From contig JAJRZD010000091.1 of assembly GCA_024275415.1 (NCBI GenBank), forward strand, positions 87,470 to 119,469: a DNA stretch of 32,000 nucleotides. Reading direction: 5' to 3'. This stretch comes from an archaeon. GTDB lineage: Archaea > Asgardarchaeota > Thorarchaeia > Thorarchaeales > Thorarchaeaceae. How positions within the stretch are numbered: the first letter of the stretch is position 1; every line of letters starts with the position of its first letter. Below the pieces are notes generated by a model, which made no database searches, was not told the DNA's origin, and saw only the letters and a list, made by a program, of their open reading frames with translations. Shown here piece by piece: positions 1,178 to 16,517 of the stretch. Position numbers and translations under genes: made by a program.

Positions 1178-1612
1178 TTGGCAGATCTATCGAAGGCTAT
1201 GGAGCAATATTTGGAAACAATCCACAGGATTGAACGTGAGGGTGGGACTGCAAGTGTTTCTGACATTGCAGAAGTGATGGGCGTTAAAGCTCCAAGTGTG
1301 ACTTATGTGATGCAAAAGTTGTCACAGCCCGAATATGGATTGGTCAATTACGAAAAATACAATCGTGCGGTTTCACTGACCGAAAAAGGGCGTAGTATCG
1401 CTATGCGATTGGAAAATATCCATTCAACTCTTCGATGGTTCTTTGAGATGATCGGACTAGACCCTCAAATTGCGGATACAGATGCCTGCGAGATTGAACA
1501 TTTTATGCATCCTGAAACTGTGGCGAAATTGCTAGAATTTGTCGAATGGGTGCGAGATGAGCCGGAGGCAGGTGAAATGCTTCTGAGCTTCAGGGAAGCA
1601 AAGTATGGCTGA
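1178..1612 (+). CDS. DtxR/MntR-family metal-dependent transcriptional regulator
   Basis: EQYLETI, HTH SVSDIAEVMGVKAPSVT, wing SLTEKG and metal-binding DACEIEH; no FeoA-like C-terminal domain; TTG start. Confidence 0.92.
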   Translation: MADLSKAMEQYLETIHRIEREGGTASVSDIAEVMGVKAPSVTYVMQKLSQPEYGLVNYEKYNRAVSLTEKGRSIAMRLENIHSTLRWFFEMIGLDPQIADTDACEIEHFMHPETVAKLLEFVEWVRDEPEAGEMLLSFREAKYG

Positions 1613-1620
1613 ATGGACTA

Positions 1621-2892
1621 TTAGGTTCCGAACCTAGTATGTACTACCTGTCCGTTCACAATGACTGTATGGACAAGATTCATCCCGAACCTGTATGCGA
1701 GGTATTCTGGATTCGGGCAATCTAAGATTATTATATCAGCGCGTTTTCCTACTTCTATGCTTCCCAATCTATCGGCCTTGTCAATCGCATGTGCCGCATT
1801 GATTGTCAGGGCTGAGATGACTTCTCTGGGATGCATCTTCATCTTATAACAAGCCAATGCGGTCGTGAAGAATAGTGACTCGTTCGCACAATTTGGGTTG
1901 AAGTCGGTTGCGAGTGCCACTGGTAGCTCCATCTCTATCATCTCTCTTGCCCGAGCATACTCGGTGTCTAAGCTAAAGGCTGTGCCAGGGAGCAATGTGG
2001 CTATCGTCCCTGCCTTCCTCATCGCTTCCAGCCCATCATCAGAGGCCATCAATAGATGATCTGCAGAAACCGCCCCGACCTCCGCGGCCAGCTCAGCACC
2101 TCCCAGCTGGACTATCTCATCAGCATGTACCTTGAGTTTCATCCCGTGTTCTTTTCCCTTGAGGAGAATCCTTCTGGACTGCTCCACGTCAAAAACTCCC
2201 TTCTCACAGAATACATCGCAGAACTCGGCTGTACCACTCCTAGCTACTGCAGGAATCATCTCTTCCACGATCACATCAACATAGTCCTCTGTGCGCCCCT
2301 CATACTCGGGAGGCACTGCATGTGCTCCCAAAAAAGTCGAGGTTATCTCTGTAGGCAGCATGTCCCGTAGGTCATTGATAGCCTGTAGCATCTTGATTTC
2401 GTTCTTCGTGTCAAGACCATATCCACTCTTGGCTTCGATTGCCGTAGTTCCCTCTTGGATCATCCTCTGGGCAAAACCAAATGCATTGCCTGTCAGAGTC
2501 ATTTGGCTGGCATCTCTGGTTGCACGAAGCGTATTGAGTATGCCACCGCCCGCATTGAGGATCTCCATGTATGACATTCCATCCAATTTCATGGCAAAGT
2601 CCTGTTCACGAGATCCCGCAAACAGAAGATGGGTGTGACTATCAACGAACCCTGGCAAGACCAGCATACTTGGAAGATCCATCTGTGAAAATGTATCGCT
2701 CTCGATATCACTCAAGACATCTTTTGTTGTGCCCACAGCTGTAATGATTCCGTTGCTTATCGCTATGGCTCCATCTTCGATTATCGAGAGCTCCTTCATA
2801 TCTGCCCCTGTCTTGGGACTATCACTATATCCCGCCAGTGTGGCAACCTGCTTGATATTTGTGAGCACAAGATTCGGACTCATGACAATCAC
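1621..2892 (-). CDS. hutI: Imidazolonepropionase
   Basis: PGFVDSHTHLLFAGSR, EAKSGYGL, FLGAHAVP, DVFCE, KVHADE, SADHL and ALATDFNP motifs. Start may be the ATG at 2883. Confidence 0.95.
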   Translation of the reverse strand: MIVMSPNLVLTNIKQVATLAGYSDSPKTGADMKELSIIEDGAIAISNGIITAVGTTKDVLSDIESDTFSQMDLPSMLVLPGFVDSHTHLLFAGSREQDFAMKLDGMSYMEILNAGGGILNTLRATRDASQMTLTGNAFGFAQRMIQEGTTAIEAKSGYGLDTKNEIKMLQAINDLRDMLPTEITSTFLGAHAVPPEYEGRTEDYVDVIVEEMIPAVARSGTAEFCDVFCEKGVFDVEQSRRILLKGKEHGMKLKVHADEIVQLGGAELAAEVGAVSADHLLMASDDGLEAMRKAGTIATLLPGTAFSLDTEYARAREMIEMELPVALATDFNPNCANESLFFTTALACYKMKMHPREVISALTINAAHAIDKADRLGSIEVGKRADIIILDCPNPEYLAYRFGMNLVHTVIVNGQVVHTRFGT

Positions 2893-2987
2893 ATTGTGGT
2901 ACTCATATGAGACCTGTATATTTATGATACCATTTGGGTGGGATTAATTAGGGAGTGCGATGAGCACCCAGCAAATCACACAGGCAG

Positions 2988-3578
2988 TTGCAACAAATGG
3001 AGTATCTCATTCTCAGTTGGGACGACGTCTACAACCTGACCCTACAGCTCTCCGAGCGGATCGTTGAGAGCGGGTTTGTGCCAGATCTTATAGTCGGTAT
3101 AGCTCGAGGAGGCTGGATTCCAGCACGTATCTTGTCTGATGTCCTGTATGCCCATGCTATGTTCAATGTGCGTATCGAGTATTATACAGACTTGGGAATA
3201 CATGGCAGGGAGCCTAAGATAACTCAACCATTGTCCGTCCCTATCGAGGGCAAGAATGTGTTGATAATAGATGAAGTCGCTGACTCGGGTGAGAGCTTGC
3301 ATCATGCCATCGAGTATATCCAGAGTCTGGGAGTCAAGGAAGTAAGGAGTGCCGTGCTTCATCTCAAGCCGACTTCTCGGGTTGTCCCTGACTTCTACAT
3401 GCAATGTGTGACCAGCTGGACTGTGTATCCGTGGGAGCTCCGCGAGTCCATCATCGCACTCGTACAGAAGTTCAAGGATGAAGACCCTACTATGGATATG
3501 AAGGCAATTCGAAACAAGTTGGTTTTCGAAGTGGGATTCGATCCGACTGTGGCTGATTACTTTATTAAACGTCTTTGA
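2988..3578 (+). CDS. Type I phosphoribosyltransferase, archaeal xanthine/hypoxanthine-guanine PRT-like
   Basis: IVGIARGGWIPA, PRPP-binding VLIIDEVADSGESL and WTVYPWE. Confidence 0.88.
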   Translation: MQQMEYLILSWDDVYNLTLQLSERIVESGFVPDLIVGIARGGWIPARILSDVLYAHAMFNVRIEYYTDLGIHGREPKITQPLSVPIEGKNVLIIDEVADSGESLHHAIEYIQSLGVKEVRSAVLHLKPTSRVVPDFYMQCVTSWTVYPWELRESIIALVQKFKDEDPTMDMKAIRNKLVFEVGFDPTVADYFIKRL

Positions 3579-3597
3579 ATCAAACTGAGGGAATGAC

Positions 3598-4179
3598 TTG
3601 CTAGTAGACCGTTTAATTGCTCCCGAAGGCCCGTTATTCGTAGGGGTTTCAGAGCTTGAGAATGAAAAGAACCTTACAAAAGACGAATTGATTGCTATTG
3701 CTGTGAACAATGCCTGCGATGTGCTGGCGATGCAGCTGTTCGACTCATCTCTCATTGTTGACGCGCACCACCTTGTTGTTGCCGCTCAGAATGCCGTCAA
3801 TGCATGGTACGGGAAATATGCTCAGGCAAGGTCTCTCGACGTAGAGATTGCCATCTTTGCATCGGGGCAAAATCAGATTGGGAAAGCACTCGATACCTTT
3901 GGAGTGAAAGATAATCTGAAGCAAATCGCAGTGGTGATAATTAGTAATGATAAGGATGTAATTAGGAGATGCCTGATCAATCTACAGGAAAAAGTTGGTT
4001 CTCCTCTTCAAGTCCAGTTTGCATCTGACCTGTGTCGTTTCAAATCTATCATGCGTGTATTTGACATCAATGAGCAGGAACTTGAAGCAATCTCTGAGGG
4101 GGTAGGAGCCATCAGCACTCGAGAAGCATTGTTGCGGTGCGTCGCAAGTCGAGTCAGTACTGTCGCTTTAGAAGCATAG
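3598..4179 (+). CDS. cgi121: KEOPS complex subunit Cgi121
   Basis: QLFDSSLIVDAHHLVVAAQNAVNA and ARSLDVEIAIFASGQNQIGKALDTFG match the Cgi121 pattern; TTG start after GAGGGA. Confidence 0.85.
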   Translation: MLVDRLIAPEGPLFVGVSELENEKNLTKDELIAIAVNNACDVLAMQLFDSSLIVDAHHLVVAAQNAVNAWYGKYAQARSLDVEIAIFASGQNQIGKALDTFGVKDNLKQIAVVIISNDKDVIRRCLINLQEKVGSPLQVQFASDLCRFKSIMRVFDINEQELEAISEGVGAISTREALLRCVASRVSTVALEA

Positions 4180-4189
4180 CACACTTCTC

Positions 4190-4729
4190 TCAATACATAT
4201 CGTCACGCATTGCCATAATTGAAAGGATATCCTCCCTCGGGTCGAGCACAGAGATTCCTGTTAAGGTTCCCACGATTTCAATCCAGACTGTCTTGTCAGG
4301 ATTATCCAAGTCGACGCTTCTGGGGATGACTGATGCCACAGCCTTTACCACATCCATATGCTCAAGGTCGGTATGTCTTCTCCGTACAGTGACCCTGAAC
4401 GTTTCATTAGTCCCTATCTTTTCGCGCAGCCTTTCAGCCGATCGTACGATATCTTCGATATTTGATGGGACACACACCTCCAGCGGAGTGAATCGTATTG
4501 CATATCTGAACTGATATGCATTTTCCAACGCCATCTCCCTAAGTTGACCCAGCACCTCGAATGGATCCAAGCTCGTCATGCAGGTTATCATGCCCACAAT
4601 ATGAGTCCGATTGACCTTTAGGTTCTCATCACCAAGAAGATCTTTTATGAAATACCTGACCTCTGAGATCGCTGCTTGCTCTCTTTCTCTAGGGCATCCT
4701 ATTAGGATATTGAACTCCTGCAGAATCAA
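4190..4729 (-). CDS. Stand-alone THUMP-domain RNA-binding protein
   Basis: FRYAIRFTPLE, ETFRVTVRRR and VDLDNPDKTVWIEIVG. The TTG at 4729, after GTGAGG, is preferred to the track start at 4789, which lies inside tsaC. Confidence 0.85.
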   Translation of the reverse strand: MILQEFNILIGCPREREQAAISEVRYFIKDLLGDENLKVNRTHIVGMITCMTSLDPFEVLGQLREMALENAYQFRYAIRFTPLEVCVPSNIEDIVRSAERLREKIGTNETFRVTVRRRHTDLEHMDVVKAVASVIPRSVDLDNPDKTVWIEIVGTLTGISVLDPREDILSIMAMRDDMY

Positions 4730-7622: not shown

Positions 7623-8636
7623 TTACTCAGACTCTATTGCAACAAAGAAAAGCTTGTTTCCTACCGCCTGAACTATCTCCTTGTTGCCATCGCCCGACAG
7701 GTCGCCATATGCGACCAACGAGTCAGCGCTTTTGCTTGCTGTCTTGATAGATGCATCTTCGAAGAACTCTCGCCCTTCAACGCTCAGCATTGAGAGCTTT
7801 GAGTTGGCCAGACTGACAAGAACCTGACCCTGTGACCTGGCCCCATCAATCAGCATCTCGCCGACCTTCATTGACGAGATGCTCCCGGGGGCTCGGATCC
7901 TTGCGCGAGTGCTGACTGACTTCTGTTCCACCTCGAACAGGGTGATTGTCTTCTCACTGCTGGCTATCACTACATCATCCGATCTTCTACCTGTCACACG
8001 TCCTGTTGCGACCAAGTTGACCTCCCCACTTACCTTCGCATTGGCGATTTCATGCAGGCGGTCGTCAGCATATTGATAGATATATAGGGTTTCGGAGTCA
8101 TCGCCAAAGACAAACCTCGTGTAGGATGTTCCCTCACTCCTCAGAGGTTTCATTGAGAAGACAGGTCGCTTAACGACCTTGTGTGCAAGCTTGTCGAGGA
8201 AAGTATCATACCATCCATAGCACCTGAGAGCATTGTCATTGGTTGCTACGACAACTTCCTCTTTCCCATCATTGAGAACATTTGCCACAACCAACGAGAT
8301 TGGAAGGTTTCCTAACATCGCATTGGACTTGACCTCGAGCGATTTCTTGCCGATGCTTACCACTCTCAGGGTATTATCAAGCCCTCCTACGACAAAATCA
8401 GGTGTACCATTTCCAGTGACATCTCCAATCCCAAATGACGAGATAGGGACAAGGTCTGTCATCCTGAACAGTTCCTTGACGACATTGTTGCCACCGACAT
8501 AATCGTAGACTCTCAGGCTCCCACTGACCGTAGCAAGCACTATGTTGTCCTTGCCATCTCCTGTCACATCCATCACCTCAAGGTTCGTGACCATTTCCTT
8601 GAGCGAATGGCTTGTTATCAGGTTCATCGATGGCAT
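7623..8636 (-). CDS. FG-GAP/VCBS-type repeat beta-propeller without signal peptide
   Basis: About seven repeats of roughly 45 aa: DVTGDGKDNIV, GDVTGNGTPDFVV, NVLNDGKEEVVV, GRVTGRRSDDVV, GDLSGDGNKEIV. No hydrophobic N-terminus. Confidence 0.8.
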   Translation of the reverse strand: MPSMNLITSHSLKEMVTNLEVMDVTGDGKDNIVLATVSGSLRVYDYVGGNNVVKELFRMTDLVPISSFGIGDVTGNGTPDFVVGGLDNTLRVVSIGKKSLEVKSNAMLGNLPISLVVANVLNDGKEEVVVATNDNALRCYGWYDTFLDKLAHKVVKRPVFSMKPLRSEGTSYTRFVFGDDSETLYIYQYADDRLHEIANAKVSGEVNLVATGRVTGRRSDDVVIASSEKTITLFEVEQKSVSTRARIRAPGSISSMKVGEMLIDGARSQGQVLVSLANSKLSMLSVEGREFFEDASIKTASKSADSLVAYGDLSGDGNKEIVQAVGNKLFFVAIESE

Positions 8637-8862: not shown

Positions 8863-10113
8863 TCATGGCGATTCAGGCATTAGTAGCCATTTCCATAGTG
8901 GAATATATCTTATTGAACTCCCGTTTTTCTTGTTTAATCCTTCATAATCCCATGTTATTATCTGCAAATCATTACAATCAAGTTCCTGAGAAGCTCTAAT
9001 GAGCGAACGTTCTTCTCTATTACGTGTCTTCTGGTCACTTATATCATAACTCACCTGTATGAGTTGTTCAAAGCCCCTTTGCCCTCGAACTAGAAAATCA
9101 ACTTCGTGTCCAGATTGCGATTGCCAGTAGAAAATCTCTCCACCATTTAGCAAGACCTGTTTATAGAGATTGATGGCAACAATTGATTCAACGCGACGTG
9201 TGATTGATTGCGATAATGGTGAGTATGGCTGAAATAGTCCAACATCGGTAGGATACACCTTTTTTGGCATCTGGGTGATTCCTCTGGGTGATTTTGAAAA
9301 CCGTGGAATTGTGAAGACCAGGAATGCTTCCTCAAAGTAGCCAAGCCACTCTGAAAGAGACCTCTTGCTCTTTCTTACTCCGATGCTCTTGAAGAATTTC
9401 TCTGCCTTCGATAACGAAAGTGCATTACCAAGATTTCTAATGATGAGGTTTCTGAATATTCGTGCTCCTTCTATATCACGTATTCCAAAACGCTCCACAA
9501 CGTCTCTAAAGAATATCGTGTCGAGATAGATACTCAAGAGTTCCATCTTTTCTGAAGACTGATTGACACGAGGAAATCCTCCCCACTCAAGATATCTATT
9601 TAGAAGCGCCTTTGCTTTGTTCCTGCGCCCTCCTTCATAATCAAAAAATTCTTTGAAGCTGAGAGGAAATACGATGCGCGTTATGCTTCTCCCTCTTAAC
9701 TCGGATGCAATCTCCTGAGCCAATAGCCTAGAACTTGAACCACTCACAAAAATATGAAACTTTCCCATATTATGGAGTCCCCTCAGCCATGATGACCAAT
9801 CATCAATGGACTGCACCTCATCAAGAAAAAGGACTCCTTTGTCAGGAATGAGTTCTTCAAGCAAATCTACGAGTTCTGTATATGTTACATTGCTCAACGG
9901 ATCCTCAAAGTCGATATAGACCATATTCTTTTTTCCAAACCTTTCTGCAAGAGTGTCAGCAATCTGATACATGAAATATGTCTTTCCCGCTCTCCTAGGG
10001 CCAATGATTGTGGTAATCTCTTTGGTGATTGCGAATGGAATCAACCTCTCAATAATCTTGAATTCTGTCTCTCTCCACTCAAATATCTTCTTTCTTAACT
10101 CCTGTTTACCCAT
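8863..10113 (-). CDS. AAA_14 + DUF4143 ATPase (COG1373-like)
   Basis: Walker A GPRRAGKT, Walker B LFLDEVQ, VSGSS, YLEWGGFP and C-terminal nuclease-like EVDFL...IQV. Visibly more AT-rich than its flanks. Confidence 0.88.
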   Translation of the reverse strand: MGKQELRKKIFEWRETEFKIIERLIPFAITKEITTIIGPRRAGKTYFMYQIADTLAERFGKKNMVYIDFEDPLSNVTYTELVDLLEELIPDKGVLFLDEVQSIDDWSSWLRGLHNMGKFHIFVSGSSSRLLAQEIASELRGRSITRIVFPLSFKEFFDYEGGRRNKAKALLNRYLEWGGFPRVNQSSEKMELLSIYLDTIFFRDVVERFGIRDIEGARIFRNLIIRNLGNALSLSKAEKFFKSIGVRKSKRSLSEWLGYFEEAFLVFTIPRFSKSPRGITQMPKKVYPTDVGLFQPYSPLSQSITRRVESIVAINLYKQVLLNGGEIFYWQSQSGHEVDFLVRGQRGFEQLIQVSYDISDQKTRNREERSLIRASQELDCNDLQIITWDYEGLNKKNGSSIRYIPLWKWLLMPESP

Positions 10114-10429
10114 GCCCGTATGGTAAACAAAAACAACATAAAAGTGTTTACAACTTCGCTGAGACCTGAGTGAATATCTCTGTCGCCATTTAATCCATGA
10201 CCATTCAAAACAAGTTCCACGAGTTGAAGCATTTTGTCATTCTTGTGGATTCTAAAGCCATGCTTCAGATAGACTCAGAATAACCTGAGATTTTTTTATG
10301 CTCTCGCAAAGGTTTCAATTACCAGTAATTCCCGATCAGACAGTAATTCATCTGCGATGAATTTCAGGTAATGATTGATGTTATCCATCTTTAAGAGTCA
10401 AAATACCATTACTATTACGTGGCGATATT

Positions 10430-10966
10430 ATGGTTTCTGAGCGAAACGAACCACGCCTCACATCAGAGCAGTGGAATTGTGATTCTCTGGTCTTGAGTAA
10501 AGAGCTCAGGTCGTTCGTCGAAGAGTTTGGTTCTTTCACACCTGATTGGTTTGTGGAGGTAAAATACCATCTTTTGAAAGGTGCAGGTTTCGATCGGACG
10601 ACCCGCGATGAACTGTGTTCTGTTTCCATTTACTCGCACACGTGTGACAAGTGTGACCATTTGTACATGTCAAAGAACTGTCTGTTGTGGTATCACCTTT
10701 TCAAGCTAATCACCTGGAAAACCGTCGGACGTGCCCCTCCTTGCATCAAGGCCGCCTACAGGAACAAGAGCATAAAGACTGTTGCTAACTTCCTGAAGCG
10801 TGCCAACCTTGTTTCTCCTCCCTACTACCTGTCCCGCGGTGTGCCTCTCTGTAGGAATATGCAAGACTGGGACTATTGCTCGCCTGATGAATACTGCAAG
10901 CAGATGAGGACTGGACGATTGCTTGCCTATAATGCGGTACGCGAACAGGTGAAGATCAATCGTTGA
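10430..10966 (+). CDS. Cys-rich protein resembling the primase large subunit (PriL) C-terminal Fe-S domain
   Basis: APPCIK...VANFLK...VPLCRNMQDWDYCSPDEYCKQMR..LLAY follows the PriL-CTD PPC...P-C-x8-C-x5-C...Y pattern. There is an extra N-terminal C-x8-C-x2-C-x8-C group. TATA-like CTTTAAG lies near 10389. Confidence 0.6.
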   Translation: MVSERNEPRLTSEQWNCDSLVLSKELRSFVEEFGSFTPDWFVEVKYHLLKGAGFDRTTRDELCSVSIYSHTCDKCDHLYMSKNCLLWYHLFKLITWKTVGRAPPCIKAAYRNKSIKTVANFLKRANLVSPPYYLSRGVPLCRNMQDWDYCSPDEYCKQMRTGRLLAYNAVREQVKINR

Positions 10967-11019
10967 TGGTATGACATCTTATATGTGGGGAAGCCTTTCT
11001 CTTGTCTGGTGACTAGTGG

Positions 11020-12528
11020 TTGTTAGCTGAACCTGATGTGGAAATCACGAATCTTATCCGTCTCACAGGCTTTCGTGAGCAATTCATTAGTGATGCAAGA
11101 ACCGAAGGGAGTGATGATTGGGAGGATATCTGCAGCATTGTGCGGGAACATCAACGAATTCTAGCGCTCGGTGAGAAGCACACACGGCAAAAGGCAATCC
11201 AAGATCCCGTTCATGGTGCGATACTTCTTGAGCCTTGGGAACTCGACATAATCTCTGCTTGGGAAATGCTTAGGCTTCGTTACATCAGACAGTTGGGCCC
11301 TGCTCATATTGTATATCCTGGGGCAACACATACTAGGTTTGAGCACTGCATCGGGACCAATTTCCTAGCCCAAAAATGCATCCGTGTCGTGAACTACTGT
11401 GAGGATCTTGAGAACCCGCAGTTTGTGCCACTGTCGCAACTCCTTGATGCATATCATGAACGGGTGTTCCGTGCTGCTGCCCTCCTTCATGATGTTGGGC
11501 ATCCCCCTACTTCGCATACCATTGAGTTCGCATTGGAGAATTGGGCGGGTCTCTCCCATACTGATCTAGGCATGTTCCTCATCTTGCACAGTGACATCGC
11601 AGACATTCTGGAACAGAATGACATCTCCCCCTCTTCTATCGTGGATGTCCTCAAGAGACGGTCTGACGACCCTATCATGCAGCTCCTTTCAGAGTTCCTT
11701 GACAGTCCGCTGGACATCGATAAGACAGACTACCTGATTCGTGACGCACATTTCAGTGGTGTCGAGCTTGGCATCTTCCCTGCAGAGAGGGTGCTGCTTA
11801 CTAATCGAGTCGTCAGGGATTCCGAAGGACAATATCATCGCGCTTTCATGCTAAAAGCCCTCCACTCCCTTGAAGCCCTCATCCTTAGTAGGGCCTGGAT
11901 GTTCTCCGATCTGTATTTGCACCATGCTGTTAGAGTAGCAGAAGCCATGACTTCCAAGGCGACCTATTTACGTCTGAAAGAGGATGCATTCTCAAAGAAC
12001 GAATGCATAGCGTTCTTCACCCGGATGACGGATGGTGATCTCTTCAGATGGCTGGAGCGTTCGGAAGTCCCTTTTGTCCGGGAATATGCGGCACGGATCC
12101 GCTACCGGCGTCTCTTCAAGGTCATCACAGCGAAACCACTTTCCTCGTTCACCGAAGATGCCCGCTACCGGCTTCTACGCTTCGTGGATGACGTTGGAGC
12201 CCTTATCGAGGCAGAGCTGGATCTCCTGGAAGAGCCCGGTCAAGTCTTAATCGATGTCGTCAACCCCGTCTTGGGAGAACATTTCTTGAGTCAGATACCA
12301 ATTCTCATCGGTGGCAGTAATGGCTTTGATCTGGTTCCGCTGAACGAAACTCCTGAAGGGAAACCTTTGATGGAAACGTTAGTGCAACAACAACGAACTA
12401 TCCCTGCGGTGCGAGTGTATTCGGACTTGAAACATGCAGACGTGGTACGAAAGAGATTCGACAAGATGTTCCATGCACAACACATCAAGGCTCACCGTGA
12501 TGATGACCCCGAGTTCATCGAGTACTAG
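11020..12528 (+). CDS. HD-domain phosphohydrolase, SAMHD1/COG1078-type dNTP triphosphohydrolase family
   Basis: DPVHG, RLRYIRQLG, YPGATHTRFEH, LLHDVGHPPTSH, DIDKTDYLIRD and LYLHH; about 55 aa of N-terminal extension; TTG start after GGTGA. Confidence 0.9.
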   Translation: MLAEPDVEITNLIRLTGFREQFISDARTEGSDDWEDICSIVREHQRILALGEKHTRQKAIQDPVHGAILLEPWELDIISAWEMLRLRYIRQLGPAHIVYPGATHTRFEHCIGTNFLAQKCIRVVNYCEDLENPQFVPLSQLLDAYHERVFRAAALLHDVGHPPTSHTIEFALENWAGLSHTDLGMFLILHSDIADILEQNDISPSSIVDVLKRRSDDPIMQLLSEFLDSPLDIDKTDYLIRDAHFSGVELGIFPAERVLLTNRVVRDSEGQYHRAFMLKALHSLEALILSRAWMFSDLYLHHAVRVAEAMTSKATYLRLKEDAFSKNECIAFFTRMTDGDLFRWLERSEVPFVREYAARIRYRRLFKVITAKPLSSFTEDARYRLLRFVDDVGALIEAELDLLEEPGQVLIDVVNPVLGEHFLSQIPILIGGSNGFDLVPLNETPEGKPLMETLVQQQRTIPAVRVYSDLKHADVVRKRFDKMFHAQHIKAHRDDDPEFIEY

Positions 12529-13208
12529 ACGAGGTGCACGACCAAGTCCAGCACCTTGCGAAACCCTATCTCGATATAAATCACACCAAAGAGTGCCTCG
12601 ACGAGTGTACCCTTGATGTGTTCCATCTCTGACTTTGTGGGTGTCGGAGGATCGAAATGAATCCGGTTCTCGTAAAGCCCCCACTCGTCACATTTCTTTG
12701 ATAGGTGTTCGTTACTCACTAATCCCGAGCGCCTTTCTGTGAGATATCCCACATCAGATGCACGTGGTTTCCATATATGGTGAAGGATAGCCATGTCTAT
12801 TGCAGCATCGCCCAGCAGTGCCAGCATTTTCGCTGTTTCACTCAATGAGATCATGTCAGGGAAATACTTGCATTCTTGAAGGATGGTTTCTTGGTCACAA
12901 TAGTGTGTTTCCAGTTCGAGAAACAGATTCTTTGTGCTTGGCTGGAACAACAGGACCGTGAACAGTCCTTTCTCGTTAAGGGCGAAGTCAAACAACTTTT
13001 CAAGCTTGGGTGCTAACACCTCTTCGGCGTAGACTACCCGTCGGATAATGTAGTTGAGCTCTTTTAGCCAGCGCTCCATCTTCCTGCGGGTCCGTGCATT
13101 TCTCTGCGGAATCTTTTTCAGGTCTTGTTCGACAAGATCCTTTATCTTTACCAGATTCTCTTTCAGATAGAGTCTATGCCAGTCCAGCACTGAGTCACCA
13201 AGCGTCAT
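12525..13208 (-). CDS. RNase III-family protein lacking a dsRBD (Mini-III-like catalytic pattern)
   Basis: LEKLFDFALNEKGLFTVLLFQPS resembles the RNase III N-helix; LALLGDAA, LVSNEHL and GTLVEALFGVIYIE follow. Strong SD GGGAGG. Confidence 0.8.
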   Translation of the reverse strand: MTLGDSVLDWHRLYLKENLVKIKDLVEQDLKKIPQRNARTRRKMERWLKELNYIIRRVVYAEEVLAPKLEKLFDFALNEKGLFTVLLFQPSTKNLFLELETHYCDQETILQECKYFPDMISLSETAKMLALLGDAAIDMAILHHIWKPRASDVGYLTERRSGLVSNEHLSKKCDEWGLYENRIHFDPPTPTKSEMEHIKGTLVEALFGVIYIEIGFRKVLDLVVHLV

Positions 13209-14359: not shown

Positions 14360-15496
14360 ATGGAAGATGAATATCTTGCTGCTAAGCCCATTGTCATTGA
14401 CAACGGCACTGGTCTTAGCAAAAATGGCTACGCGGGTGAAGACCAACCCCGCAGCGTCTGGCCGACTTTGATAGGATACCCACGATACGAGTCGATCATG
14501 ACGGACGTTGACCACTATACACGCGACTATTACATCGGCGAAGAAGCGATTAACCTTCGCGGTGTCCTACGACTTGTCTACCCCATCACACATGGTGTGG
14601 TCGAGGACTGGGATGCCATCGAGAAGATCTGGAGCTACACCTTCTACAACGACCTGAAGGTGGATCCAAGTGAGAACCCCGTGTTACTTACAGAGGCACC
14701 CTTCAACCCACGAGAGAACCGTGAACGCATGGCAAGCGTGATGTTCGACAACTTCGGTGTTCCTGCAGTCTATGTCGCAACTCAGGCTGTGCTCTCGCTG
14801 TATGCATCAGGTAGGACAACAGGTCTGGTCATTGACTCTGGTGATGGTGTCACACACATCGTCCCTGTGTACGAAGGATTCTCCATCAACCACGCGATTA
14901 GGAGGATCGATCTTGCAGGACGTGATGTCACCGAGTACTTGCGCAGACTACTCAGGCAAAGAGGCTACTCCTTCGTGAGCGGTGCTGAGAAAGAAATCGT
15001 CCGTGATGTCAAGGAGAAGCTCTGCTACGTTGCTCTTGACCCAGAACGAGAACGGACTGTCGCTGACAAGGCAGGTGTCGATAAGCCCTACATGCTCCCC
15101 GACGGCGAGGTCATCACTGTGGGCGCAGAACGCTTCCAGGCACCAGAACTGTTCTTCAACCCGAGCGCGATTGGTCTTGATACATTGCCTCTCGATGAAC
15201 ACATTGTCGAGTCCATCAAGGCTTGTGACGTTGACCTGCGACGTGACCTCTACGCCAACATCGTACTCTCAGGCGGCTCTACTATGTTCCCCGGACTCAA
15301 GGAACGACTCCACAAGGAGATTACCGAACTTGTCCCCGAGAACATCGAGGTTCGCATCATCGCTCCACCCGAGAGACAATACTCCGTCTGGATTGGCGGG
15401 AGCATACTTGCCTCGCTCAAAACTTTCCAGAAGATGTGGGTTTCCCGCAAGGAATTCGAGGAACAGGGCCCCGAAGTCATCCACCGTTGCATCTAG
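14360..15496 (+). CDS. Actin (Asgard actin of the eukaryote-like, Lokiactin type)
   Basis: [83 protein letters not shown] and C-terminal GPEVIHRCI. Strong C-ending codon bias. Confidence 0.98.
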
Positions 15497-15513
15497 GCGT
15501 ACTACTAGTACAG

Positions 15514-15550
15514 GAAGGAAAGACGCACCTCTTTCCTTCACGCTTTTTTT
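15514..15550 (+). terminator. Hairpin plus T-tract terminator after actin
   Basis: Perfect 10-bp stem GAAGGAAAGA/TCTTTCCTTC with loop CGCACC, followed by T7 at 15544-15550. Confidence 0.75.
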
Positions 15551-16043
15551 CCCCCTCCCGAATGTTAACAAAATTCTACCCGAGTCATAGACATTGGTGG
15601 GAAATGAGGGATTTCAGCATGTCGCATGTCCGCAGTAATGGCATCCCCTCGTCCAACCTGTTAAGACAATTTTATTATCGGTGGTTGAGCCAAGAAGCAG
15701 TCTAATTCAAAACAAATACAAAATTGCTATACGAAACGTTGCTGACAACGACAAGATATGACATGGTTCCGACAATGGGACTTCATGATACGAGGCCTTG
15801 TGTTTTGTTGTCAGAAGCCAACTGTAGCTTTCTCCATCTTGTGGAACCTATTGCCTTTCCATCGGGATACCTTAGCAAGTGATCCACCAGTATATCTAGG
15901 CATATATACTAGCTTCGGAGGAGTGATGGCACAGCCCTCCTTCATCTTTTTTCTTTTTGGTAGTTTCAATTGATTTCCAAATACCTTATTTTGCCAGAAT
16001 ACCTCCTGGACTCGTATCAGTGATTCCAAGATTACTGAGGTAG

Positions 16044-16517
16044 ATGCATGTGACGTACACTAAGAAGGAATTGAAGAAATACCTGAAAGGTCTGTTGAAG
16101 GAGAACGATAGACTTGCGAGCTTTTCATTCGAGTACAAATCTGGTCATACCGCATATCATACTCGACTCCGGATTATTCTGACCTCTGATAAAATCATAC
16201 ACTGGAAGATACCAAGGGGAACGCCAACCGATGTTTCTGAAGAGGACAAGGTCGTACGAAAACGAGAGATTAGTTTCTCTGTTGAAAAGATGTTCATATT
16301 CGTCCAAGAGATAGTGAAGAGAAAAATATGGGATCTGGAGAATTGCACGGAAAGAGCGCTCCCTGATGATGCCATGCTCACGTTCCTGATCAAAGATGGG
16401 CAAGAAACATTGTTTGAGCGGAATGTATGGGAGATTTGTAGGAATGACGATAAGCGGACAAAAGAACTGATCAGAGCCATCGCCGCCCACATTCCATCAG
16501 ATTGGACTCCCCCATAG
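16044..16517 (+). CDS. Hypothetical protein, 157 aa
   Basis: Clean ORF with SD TGAGGT and globular alpha/beta composition; no firm family. Confidence 0.7.
   Translation: MHVTYTKKELKKYLKGLLKENDRLASFSFEYKSGHTAYHTRLRIILTSDKIIHWKIPRGTPTDVSEEDKVVRKREISFSVEKMFIFVQEIVKRKIWDLENCTERALPDDAMLTFLIKDGQETLFERNVWEICRNDDKRTKELIRAIAAHIPSDWTPP

Follow-up and report, generated by a model that had tools for sequence, protein, structure and literature searches.

The 178-residue protein P0001, encoded in a window of 32,000 nucleotides of thorarchaeal DNA (the whole stretch that was analysed), very probably carries in its C-terminal half a truncated homologue of the C-terminal domain (CTD) of PriL, the primase large subunit. 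The first-pass annotation had read the gene as a stand-alone, shortened PriL/p58C Fe-S domain, and this reading is supported by a profile-profile match found with hhalign, by the ranking obtained in a fold search, albeit at low Z scores, and by the invariance of the cysteine ligands. The N-terminal half is a separate module with four cysteines of its own, which also occurs at the N-terminus of SF3-like helicases. Since PriL-CTD homology and a module found on SF3-like helicases both point towards DNA replication, we suggest that P0001 is probably an undescribed replication accessory factor. A term search of two 2025 studies of the Asgard primase and replisome (PMC12770985, PMC12680538) brought up no such protein.

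The gene, its product and its family

The coordinates of the reading frame, the layout of the PPC, cysteine and LAY motifs and the N-terminal group of four cysteines were all, on inspection of the sequence, as first described (Table 1). The start methionine coincides with that of the homologues in the alignment. In the C-terminal half, P103-P104-C105 is followed after 35 residues by C141-x8-C150-x5-C156 and then by L165-A166-Y167. The N-terminal group has the arrangement C63-x8-C72-x2-C75-x8-C84 and is, judging by the sequence, a candidate metal site for either zinc or a second Fe-S cluster. A fifth N-terminal cysteine, C17, is not conserved.

Table 1. Features of the P0001 locus, with positions counted from the first nucleotide of the window.
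Feature	Position	Strand	Basis or remark
Conserved TATA-like element CTTTAAGAG	10389..10397	+	about 33-41 nt upstream of the P0001 ATG
CDS of the 178-aa protein P0001	10430..10966	+	ATG start; stop TGA at 10964-10966
N-terminal module (~residues 7-86), helical, weakly winged-helix-like	10448..10687	+	family-profile matches to helicases
N-terminal Cys4 site C63/C72/C75/C84	10616..10681	+	invariant in alignments
C-terminal module (residues 93-178), truncated PriL-CTD-like Fe-S domain	10706..10963	+	hhalign, AlphaFold model
PPC motif P103-P104-C105, proposed first cluster ligand	10736..10744	+	aligned to PriL FPPC by BLASTP/hhalign
C141-x8-C150-x5-C156, proposed ligands 2-4, C..M...G.C as in PriL	10850..10897	+	hhalign, Cys for Cys
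L165-A166-Y167 (family consensus LEY)	10922..10930	+	aligned to PriL PL.Y/F-Y after the last Cys
Box CTTATATG of the downstream HD gene (context)	10978..10985	+	in the spacer after the P0001 stop
HD + HD_assoc_2 protein (dGTPase/SAMHD1-like phosphohydrolase)	11020..12528	+	Pfam PF01966, PF19276

A word-indexed search returned 22 other proteins of 178-209 aa with 47-67% identity to P0001, all of them without annotation or called 'hypothetical'; those with a named source come from Thorarchaeota. Among 23 homologues of this thorarchaeal type (45-67% identity), no variation is seen at C63, C72, C75, C84, C105, C141, C150 and C156, in the motifs RAPPCI and W..C.P or at Y167. When distant members were added (25 sequences in all, reaching down to 22-34% identity), seven of the eight cysteines remained invariant and C156 was present in at least 90% of the sequences; P103 and C105 were likewise unchanged, while P104 differs in three distant members. 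The eight cysteines are thus kept across the homologues, and the extra N-terminal group noticed in the first-pass annotation is real and conserved in both the thorarchaeal and the wider alignment.

The family is a narrow one, since its profile matched only 16 of 1.84 billion representative proteins. One of the profile matches, the 908-aa repeat protein P0029, looks like a low-complexity artefact and was set aside. At the level of genomes, the profile matched 87 of 301 Asgard assemblies. In the host's own GTDB family, 73 of 76 genomes have the gene as a single copy, and those without a match are three genomes that are 77-87% complete. It was also found in three other Asgard families (5/5, 1/1 and 6/6 genomes). 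Three other well-sampled Asgard families gave no match (0/28, 0/19 and 0/21 genomes), and a fourth gave one weak fragment in 68 genomes. According to the names of their clusters, the distant members belong to Freyarchaeota and Jordarchaeaceae. The gene is therefore nearly a single-copy core gene, and near-core in two Asgard classes.

Standard family models do not recognize the protein. A Pfam scan of P0001, with PF04104 (DNA_primase_lrg, the profile proposed in the first-pass annotation as a check) and the PriCT models included, returned no family at E <= 1, and NCBIfam and PHROG scans gave no match. No relative was found among IMG/VR viral contigs scanned with the family alignment, and ESM Atlas look-ups of the two protein halves returned nothing usable.

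The C-terminal half and the primase large subunit

Comparison of residues 92-178 with the CTDs of compact Asgard PriLs by hhalign gave a P value of 2.3e-7 (probability 93.5%, score 45.9), which is somewhat optimistic because the compact subset was picked after the shared spacing had been seen. The PPC motif, the helix that follows it, the 'FL' helix, all four cysteines and the L.Y motif were in register, with the family's LEY placed at the PriL PL.Y/F-Y motif with an offset of two residues. The strength of the match depended on the set of PriLs, ranging from P 2.3e-7 to 9e-3. Full-length compact PriLs without the host sequence gave 1.7e-5 to 6.8e-5, again with the four cysteines, PPC and the FL helix in register, and the whole set of Asgard PriL-CTDs gave 1.4e-4. 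Thorarchaeal PriLs taken by themselves, in which six extra residues are inserted between Cys3 and Cys4, gave a weak match (P 0.0027-0.009, probability 4.5-11%).

In 200 column shuffles of the query that retained its cysteine content, the mean score was 11.3 (sd 2.6) and the maximum 28.6, compared to the observed 45.9. Control scores were 11.3 for the reversed query and 17.8 for the N-terminal half; the N-terminal module gave P 0.032 against PriL-CTD, with no significant extension of the match into this half of the protein. HMM-to-sequence searches between the family and PriL gave matches of 20-25 bits in both directions, and when P0001 was compared with the host PriL by BLASTP, the best local match lay precisely at PPC. 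A family-profile search of PDB sequences yielded no chain at E <= 10.

The spacing of the cysteines links P0001 to one type of PriL in particular. Compact Asgard PriLs have the layout PPC-x71/72-C-x8-C-x5/6-C, with a C..M...G.C pattern that they have in common with the P0001 family. The C-x8-C-x5-C spacing of P0001 recurs in the compact PriLs encoded at eight Asgard loci; four of these lie in genomes of two families (f7 and f19) that also carry a P0001-family gene. Across the Asgard PriL-CTDs compared (L030-L059), three spacing classes were seen: x71-72/x8/x5-6 in the compact type, x71/x8/x11 in the thorarchaeal type and x80/x8/x45-50 in the Heimdall type, some of the last having an extra CxxC-like cysteine. 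These classes agree with the two primase groups described in PMC12770985.

The main difference lies between Cys1 and Cys2, where P0001 has only 35 residues, compact PriLs have 71-72 and those of the Heimdall type 80. Relative to PriL, about 36-45 residues are missing here, in two deletions placed by hhalign, and they include the H..R-bearing segment and, as seen in the alignment of archaeal PriLs, the YQVEHI-type one. The PriL 'H..RF' segment contains the arginine of initiation, R306 in the human and R355 in the yeast protein. This segment falls in an alignment gap, with the conserved basic residues K113 and K116 of P0001 nearby in a different register. R306 of human PriL is essential for initiation (PMC5700102). 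With the initiation-arginine segment in a gap and the YQVEHI-type segment absent, NTP binding of the PriL kind is doubtful for P0001.

We also compared predicted structures. The AlphaFold model of the whole protein had a pLDDT of 72.6; residues 88-178 were modelled from 26 family sequences with zero PriL rows in the alignment (pLDDT 76.5, pTM 0.64). In a search of the latter model against 48,161 PDB representatives, 26 chains reached Z >= 2. The first three were the human p58C 5dqo_A (Z 4.3, 86 residues aligned, rmsd 4.9), the yeast PriL-CTD 6di2_A (Z 3.9, 84 aligned) and the human PRIM2 chain 8d0k_E (Z 3.6, 84 aligned), whereas rank 4 reached only Z 2.6 over half of the model. The three PriL-CTDs span 84-86 of the 91 residues, with low Z scores (3.6-4.3) and an rmsd of 4.3-4.9 Å. 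At such Z scores the fold ranking does not suffice by itself, yet all three top ranks belong to one domain family, in agreement with the sequence result. Foldseek searches of the PDB with either model (whole or C-terminal), and of BFVD with the whole model, gave nothing significant.

The resemblance to PriL-CTD might instead be convergent or due to chance, P0001 being an unrelated small cysteine-rich protein that binds zinc or an Fe-S cluster. Such a reading could account for the missing PF04104 and PDB sequence matches, the low structural Z scores and the weak score against thorarchaeal PriLs. It is hard to square with the shuffles, none of which came near the observed score even though they kept the cysteines, or with the non-cysteine positions that also match in register (PPCI, the FL helix, C..M...G.C and L.Y..R). 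Nor would it lead one to expect PriL-CTDs at each of the first three ranks among 48,161 chains, aligned over nearly the entire model. We thus consider a chance resemblance very improbable, and homology to PriL-CTD remains by far the better account of the C-terminal half.

The first-pass annotation had asked whether the host PriL might lack its CTD, in which case P0001 could compensate for a defective subunit. This is not supported: the host has one full PriL and one PriS, and its PriL (P0040, 373 aa as recorded) is full length with an intact CTD of its own, PPC-x71-C-x8-C-x11-C, so the idea of a host PriL without this domain was rejected. PriL was present in 61/61 Asgard genomes sampled. Since the host PriL is complete, the P0001 gene is no replacement for a missing domain. 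It is not linked to either primase gene, priS being on contig C47 and priL on contig C16.

The N-terminal module and the genomic context

In the search of 1.84 billion representative proteins, the family profile also matched four larger metagenome proteins, P0035-P0038 (712-746 aa), over residues 4-86 only, with E values of 2.9e-8 to 1.5e-4. One of them comes from a Thorarchaeota MAG. These proteins have a Walker-A motif and weak similarity to VapE-like proteins, to DUF5906 and, in their helicase part, to the PHROG 'DNA primase' family; on these sequence features, we class them with the SF3-type helicases that mobile elements carry. A reverse search with P0035 found members of the P0001 family at E 1e-8 to 1e-11, with 30-43% identity over about 75 residues; of 81 thorarchaeal genomes, 70 yielded the family gene in this way. 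The pattern W...F..EF..F.P..F.E..FHL is retained in the alignment of the family with the helicases, and the columns of C63, C72 and C75 are shared. The helicases have their fourth cysteine seven residues after the third, and the alignment does not put it in the column of the family's fourth cysteine.

A relative of these helicases without the N-terminal module was seen in another genome (G131, locus L066, 9629-11827). It lies 3.5 kb from a tyrosine integrase gene (15333-16475), consistent with a mobile element, and has a PIN-domain gene nearby; it is probably located within an integrated element.

Residues 11-76 of the whole-protein model gave winged-helix domains as their best matches (ArgR, FapR, the sigma-54 RpoN domain and SSV1 F-112), at Z scores of 4-5 that are within the background for small helical domains (Z about 5). 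The winged-helix nature of the N-terminal module is therefore a lead from a predicted model. It raises the possibility that P0001 is a DNA-binding Fe-S regulator of the redox or stress response, in which a winged-helix-like module would sit on DNA, one or two Cys4 clusters would act as sensors of oxidants or iron, and the PriL-CTD remnant would serve as a mere cluster scaffold with no role in priming. Fe-S proteins of the Rrf2/IscR and WhiB types are sensors of this sort, responding to oxidants or iron. The deleted or unalignable state of the PriL-CTD parts linked to NTP binding would suit such a regulator, as would the gene's own promoter box and its lack of replication neighbours. Set against this are the background level of the Z scores, the absence of any regulator match in Pfam or NCBIfam, and the absence of a conserved target gene across lineages. 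Moreover, replication is favoured over transcription because the N-terminal module is otherwise known only from the N-terminus of SF3-like helicases. We regard a regulatory role, and equally the reduction of the PriL-CTD remnant to a scaffold, as unlikely, and continue with a role in replication.

The own TATA-like box that was ascribed to the gene in the first-pass annotation stands as a conserved element, since CTTAAG(A) occurs at the same distance upstream in the 16 other thorarchaeal loci compared; as a promoter it is putative, judged on sequence. In most thorarchaeal loci, the spacer that follows the stop codon of the family gene contains a conserved box, CTTAAATA or CTTATATA. The downstream HD gene thus has a canonical CTTAAATA/CTTATATA box and the Fe-S gene a CTTAAGAG-type box, both conserved across genera (L002-L020), and the two may be examples of strong and weak thorarchaeal promoter boxes. 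As each gene has its own conserved box, the P0001 and HD genes are probably transcribed separately, and an operon of the two is unsupported. A scan for sigma-70 promoters, a model not relevant to archaea, gave background numbers.

The neighbourhood is stable within the thorarchaeal lineage and different outside it. The HD gene adjoins the family gene on its downstream side in 18 of 19 other thorarchaeal loci, the exception (L015) keeping the family gene without the HD gene, and an FG-GAP repeat gene (7623-8636 in the window) flanks it in 17 of the 19, including all four loci of the same genus. In Freyarchaeota, Jordarchaeaceae and the single genome of a further family (f8), the neighbours are unrelated: an FAD-dependent oxidoreductase with purine-synthesis genes, a GH2 glycosidase and a DEAD/MrfA-type helicase. 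The HD gene was not found beside the family gene in the Freyarchaeota and Jordarchaeaceae loci examined, and no replication gene recurs as a neighbour in any of these lineages. Because neighbours differ between lineages and the boxes are separate, the context says little about function.

Several other features of these loci were noted. A gene for an AAA_14 + DUF4143 ATPase (8863-10113, minus strand) lies between the FG-GAP gene and the P0001 gene in this genome only, and looks like a recent insertion. The HD gene (plus strand) and an RNase III-like gene (minus strand) converge with an overlap of 4 nt (12525-12528), and the RNase III-like gene and a gene for a 276-aa protein overlap by 14 nt (13195-13208); of the RNase III-like protein, only the catalytic domain was matched (PF00636, residues 129-213). 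In the f8 genome (L022), the family gene (3962-4648, minus strand) is directly upstream of a DEAD/DEAH helicase gene in the same direction (1282-3885, minus strand). The product of the latter, of 868 aa, has the MrfA Zn-binding domain PF09369 and is the sole DNA-metabolism neighbour seen, in one genome.

The first-pass annotation had drawn attention to the neighbouring dNTPase. The adjacency itself holds in nearly all thorarchaeal loci; the link to the HD gene is a weak one, as the two have separate promoter boxes and are paired only in Thorarchaeota. One could nevertheless imagine a nucleotide-pool or antiviral module, made up of P0001, the HD protein (SAMHD1/dGTPase-like) and perhaps the products of the RNase III-like and 276-aa genes, in which P0001 would regulate the dNTPase by sensing nucleotides or the ends of nucleic acids. 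The HD and HD_assoc_2 domains, with weak matches to dGTPase families of NCBIfam, and the ATPase gene just upstream would fit this picture. The adjacency is not specific to the HD gene, though, since synteny extends over the entire block, FG-GAP gene included; one thorarchaeal locus does without the HD gene, the more distant lineages have other neighbours, and the ATPase gene is an insertion unique to this genome. The near-universal, single-copy distribution of the family is also unlike that of patchy defence genes. We judge the module as a whole, and with it a sensing role towards the dNTPase, to be improbable, and we retain replication as the preferred setting for P0001.

Proposed role and comparison with known systems

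We propose, with about an even chance of being right, that P0001 is a two-module Fe-S protein accessory to replication or priming, similar to PriX in its logic. C105, C141, C150 and C156 would most likely hold one [4Fe-4S] cluster that clamps together three helices, those of PPC, of 'FL' and of the C-terminus. Of PriL-CTD's larger helical subdomain roughly half is deleted, namely the stretch with the YQVEHI-type helix. Residues ~7-86 would form a small helical module with a Cys4 metal site of its own, of the kind also present on SF3-like helicases with mobile-element relatives. This module could bind DNA or a replisome partner, either primase or helicase, so that the Fe-S module would be supplied in trans, next to an intact host PriL-CTD that P0001 would not replace. 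Since the region of the NTP site is reduced, P0001 may not act in dinucleotide formation as PriL or PriX do; docking, DNA-end binding or a redox role at the fork are equally possible.

A bolder version, to which we attach a small probability, would make P0001 a third primosome subunit of Thor- and Jordarchaeia. It would be the mirror image of PriX, a [4Fe-4S] core released from the nucleotide-binding helices and joined to a docking module, which mobile-element helicases would have copied in order to attach to the host replisome. At the fork, it would link primase with helicase or act as a redox sensor. The role of the [4Fe-4S] cluster in the large subunit of eukaryotic and archaeal primases is still debated, and if the bolder version were true, the family would provide a natural separation-of-function system for this question. 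The PriX of Sulfolobus showed that the initiation function is possible without a cluster (PMC5700102). The P0001 family appears to be the opposite case, a free cluster core with a reduced NTP-site region alongside a normal PriL. That SF3-like helicases also carry the N-terminal module is a hint of an element for docking or DNA binding common to host and mobile elements. If P0001 does bind primase or helicase, it would be an extra subunit of the Asgard replisome; otherwise, it would clearly exemplify a primase domain put to a different use.

Among known proteins, the VapE/D5-like (DUF5906) SF3 helicases have in common with P0001 the N-terminal Cys4 module of about 85 aa. They have no PriL-CTD-like part, and P0001 has no P-loop helicase domain.

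The CTD of PriL/p58 (PF04104; 5dqo, 6di2, 8d0k) is the best fold match and has the same order of four cysteines, with the PPC ... C-x8-C-x5-C spacing in compact Asgard PriLs. Also shared are the helix following PPC, the 'FL' helix, the C..M...G.C loop and, beyond the last cysteine, the L.Y motif. P0001, at 178 aa, differs from PriL in having no N-terminal PriS-binding domain and in its extra N-terminal Cys4 module. Its H..R and YQVEHI-type segments are missing or unalignable, and it falls below the Pfam threshold.

The helix-bundle domains PriCT-1 and PriCT-2 and the PriL-like domain of PolpTN2 (PMC5862659) belong to the same broad set of PriL-CTD-related helical modules and occur in replication proteins of mobile elements. 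They are fused to AEP primase domains, whereas P0001 is free-standing and chromosomal, and the broader survey of PriL-CTD/PriX/PriCT relatives likewise concerns domains fused to AEPs of mobile elements. PriCT domains mostly do not have the four cysteines; P0001 keeps all four and has no Pfam PriCT match.

A parallel in logic is the PriX of Sulfolobales (PDB 5OF3; PMC5700102), a third primase subunit which, like P0001, is a free protein derived from or related to PriL-CTD beside a complete PriL, and which sets a precedent for a PriL-CTD-like subunit acting in trans. The two come from different lineages, Sulfolobales and Asgard archaea, and no sequence match to PriX was detected, the family-profile search of PDB sequences having returned no chain at E <= 10. 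PriX has lost the Fe-S cluster and kept the NTP-binding site (D70/R72/R74) (PMC5700102). P0001 is the reverse, with its cluster ligands kept and its NTP-site region reduced.
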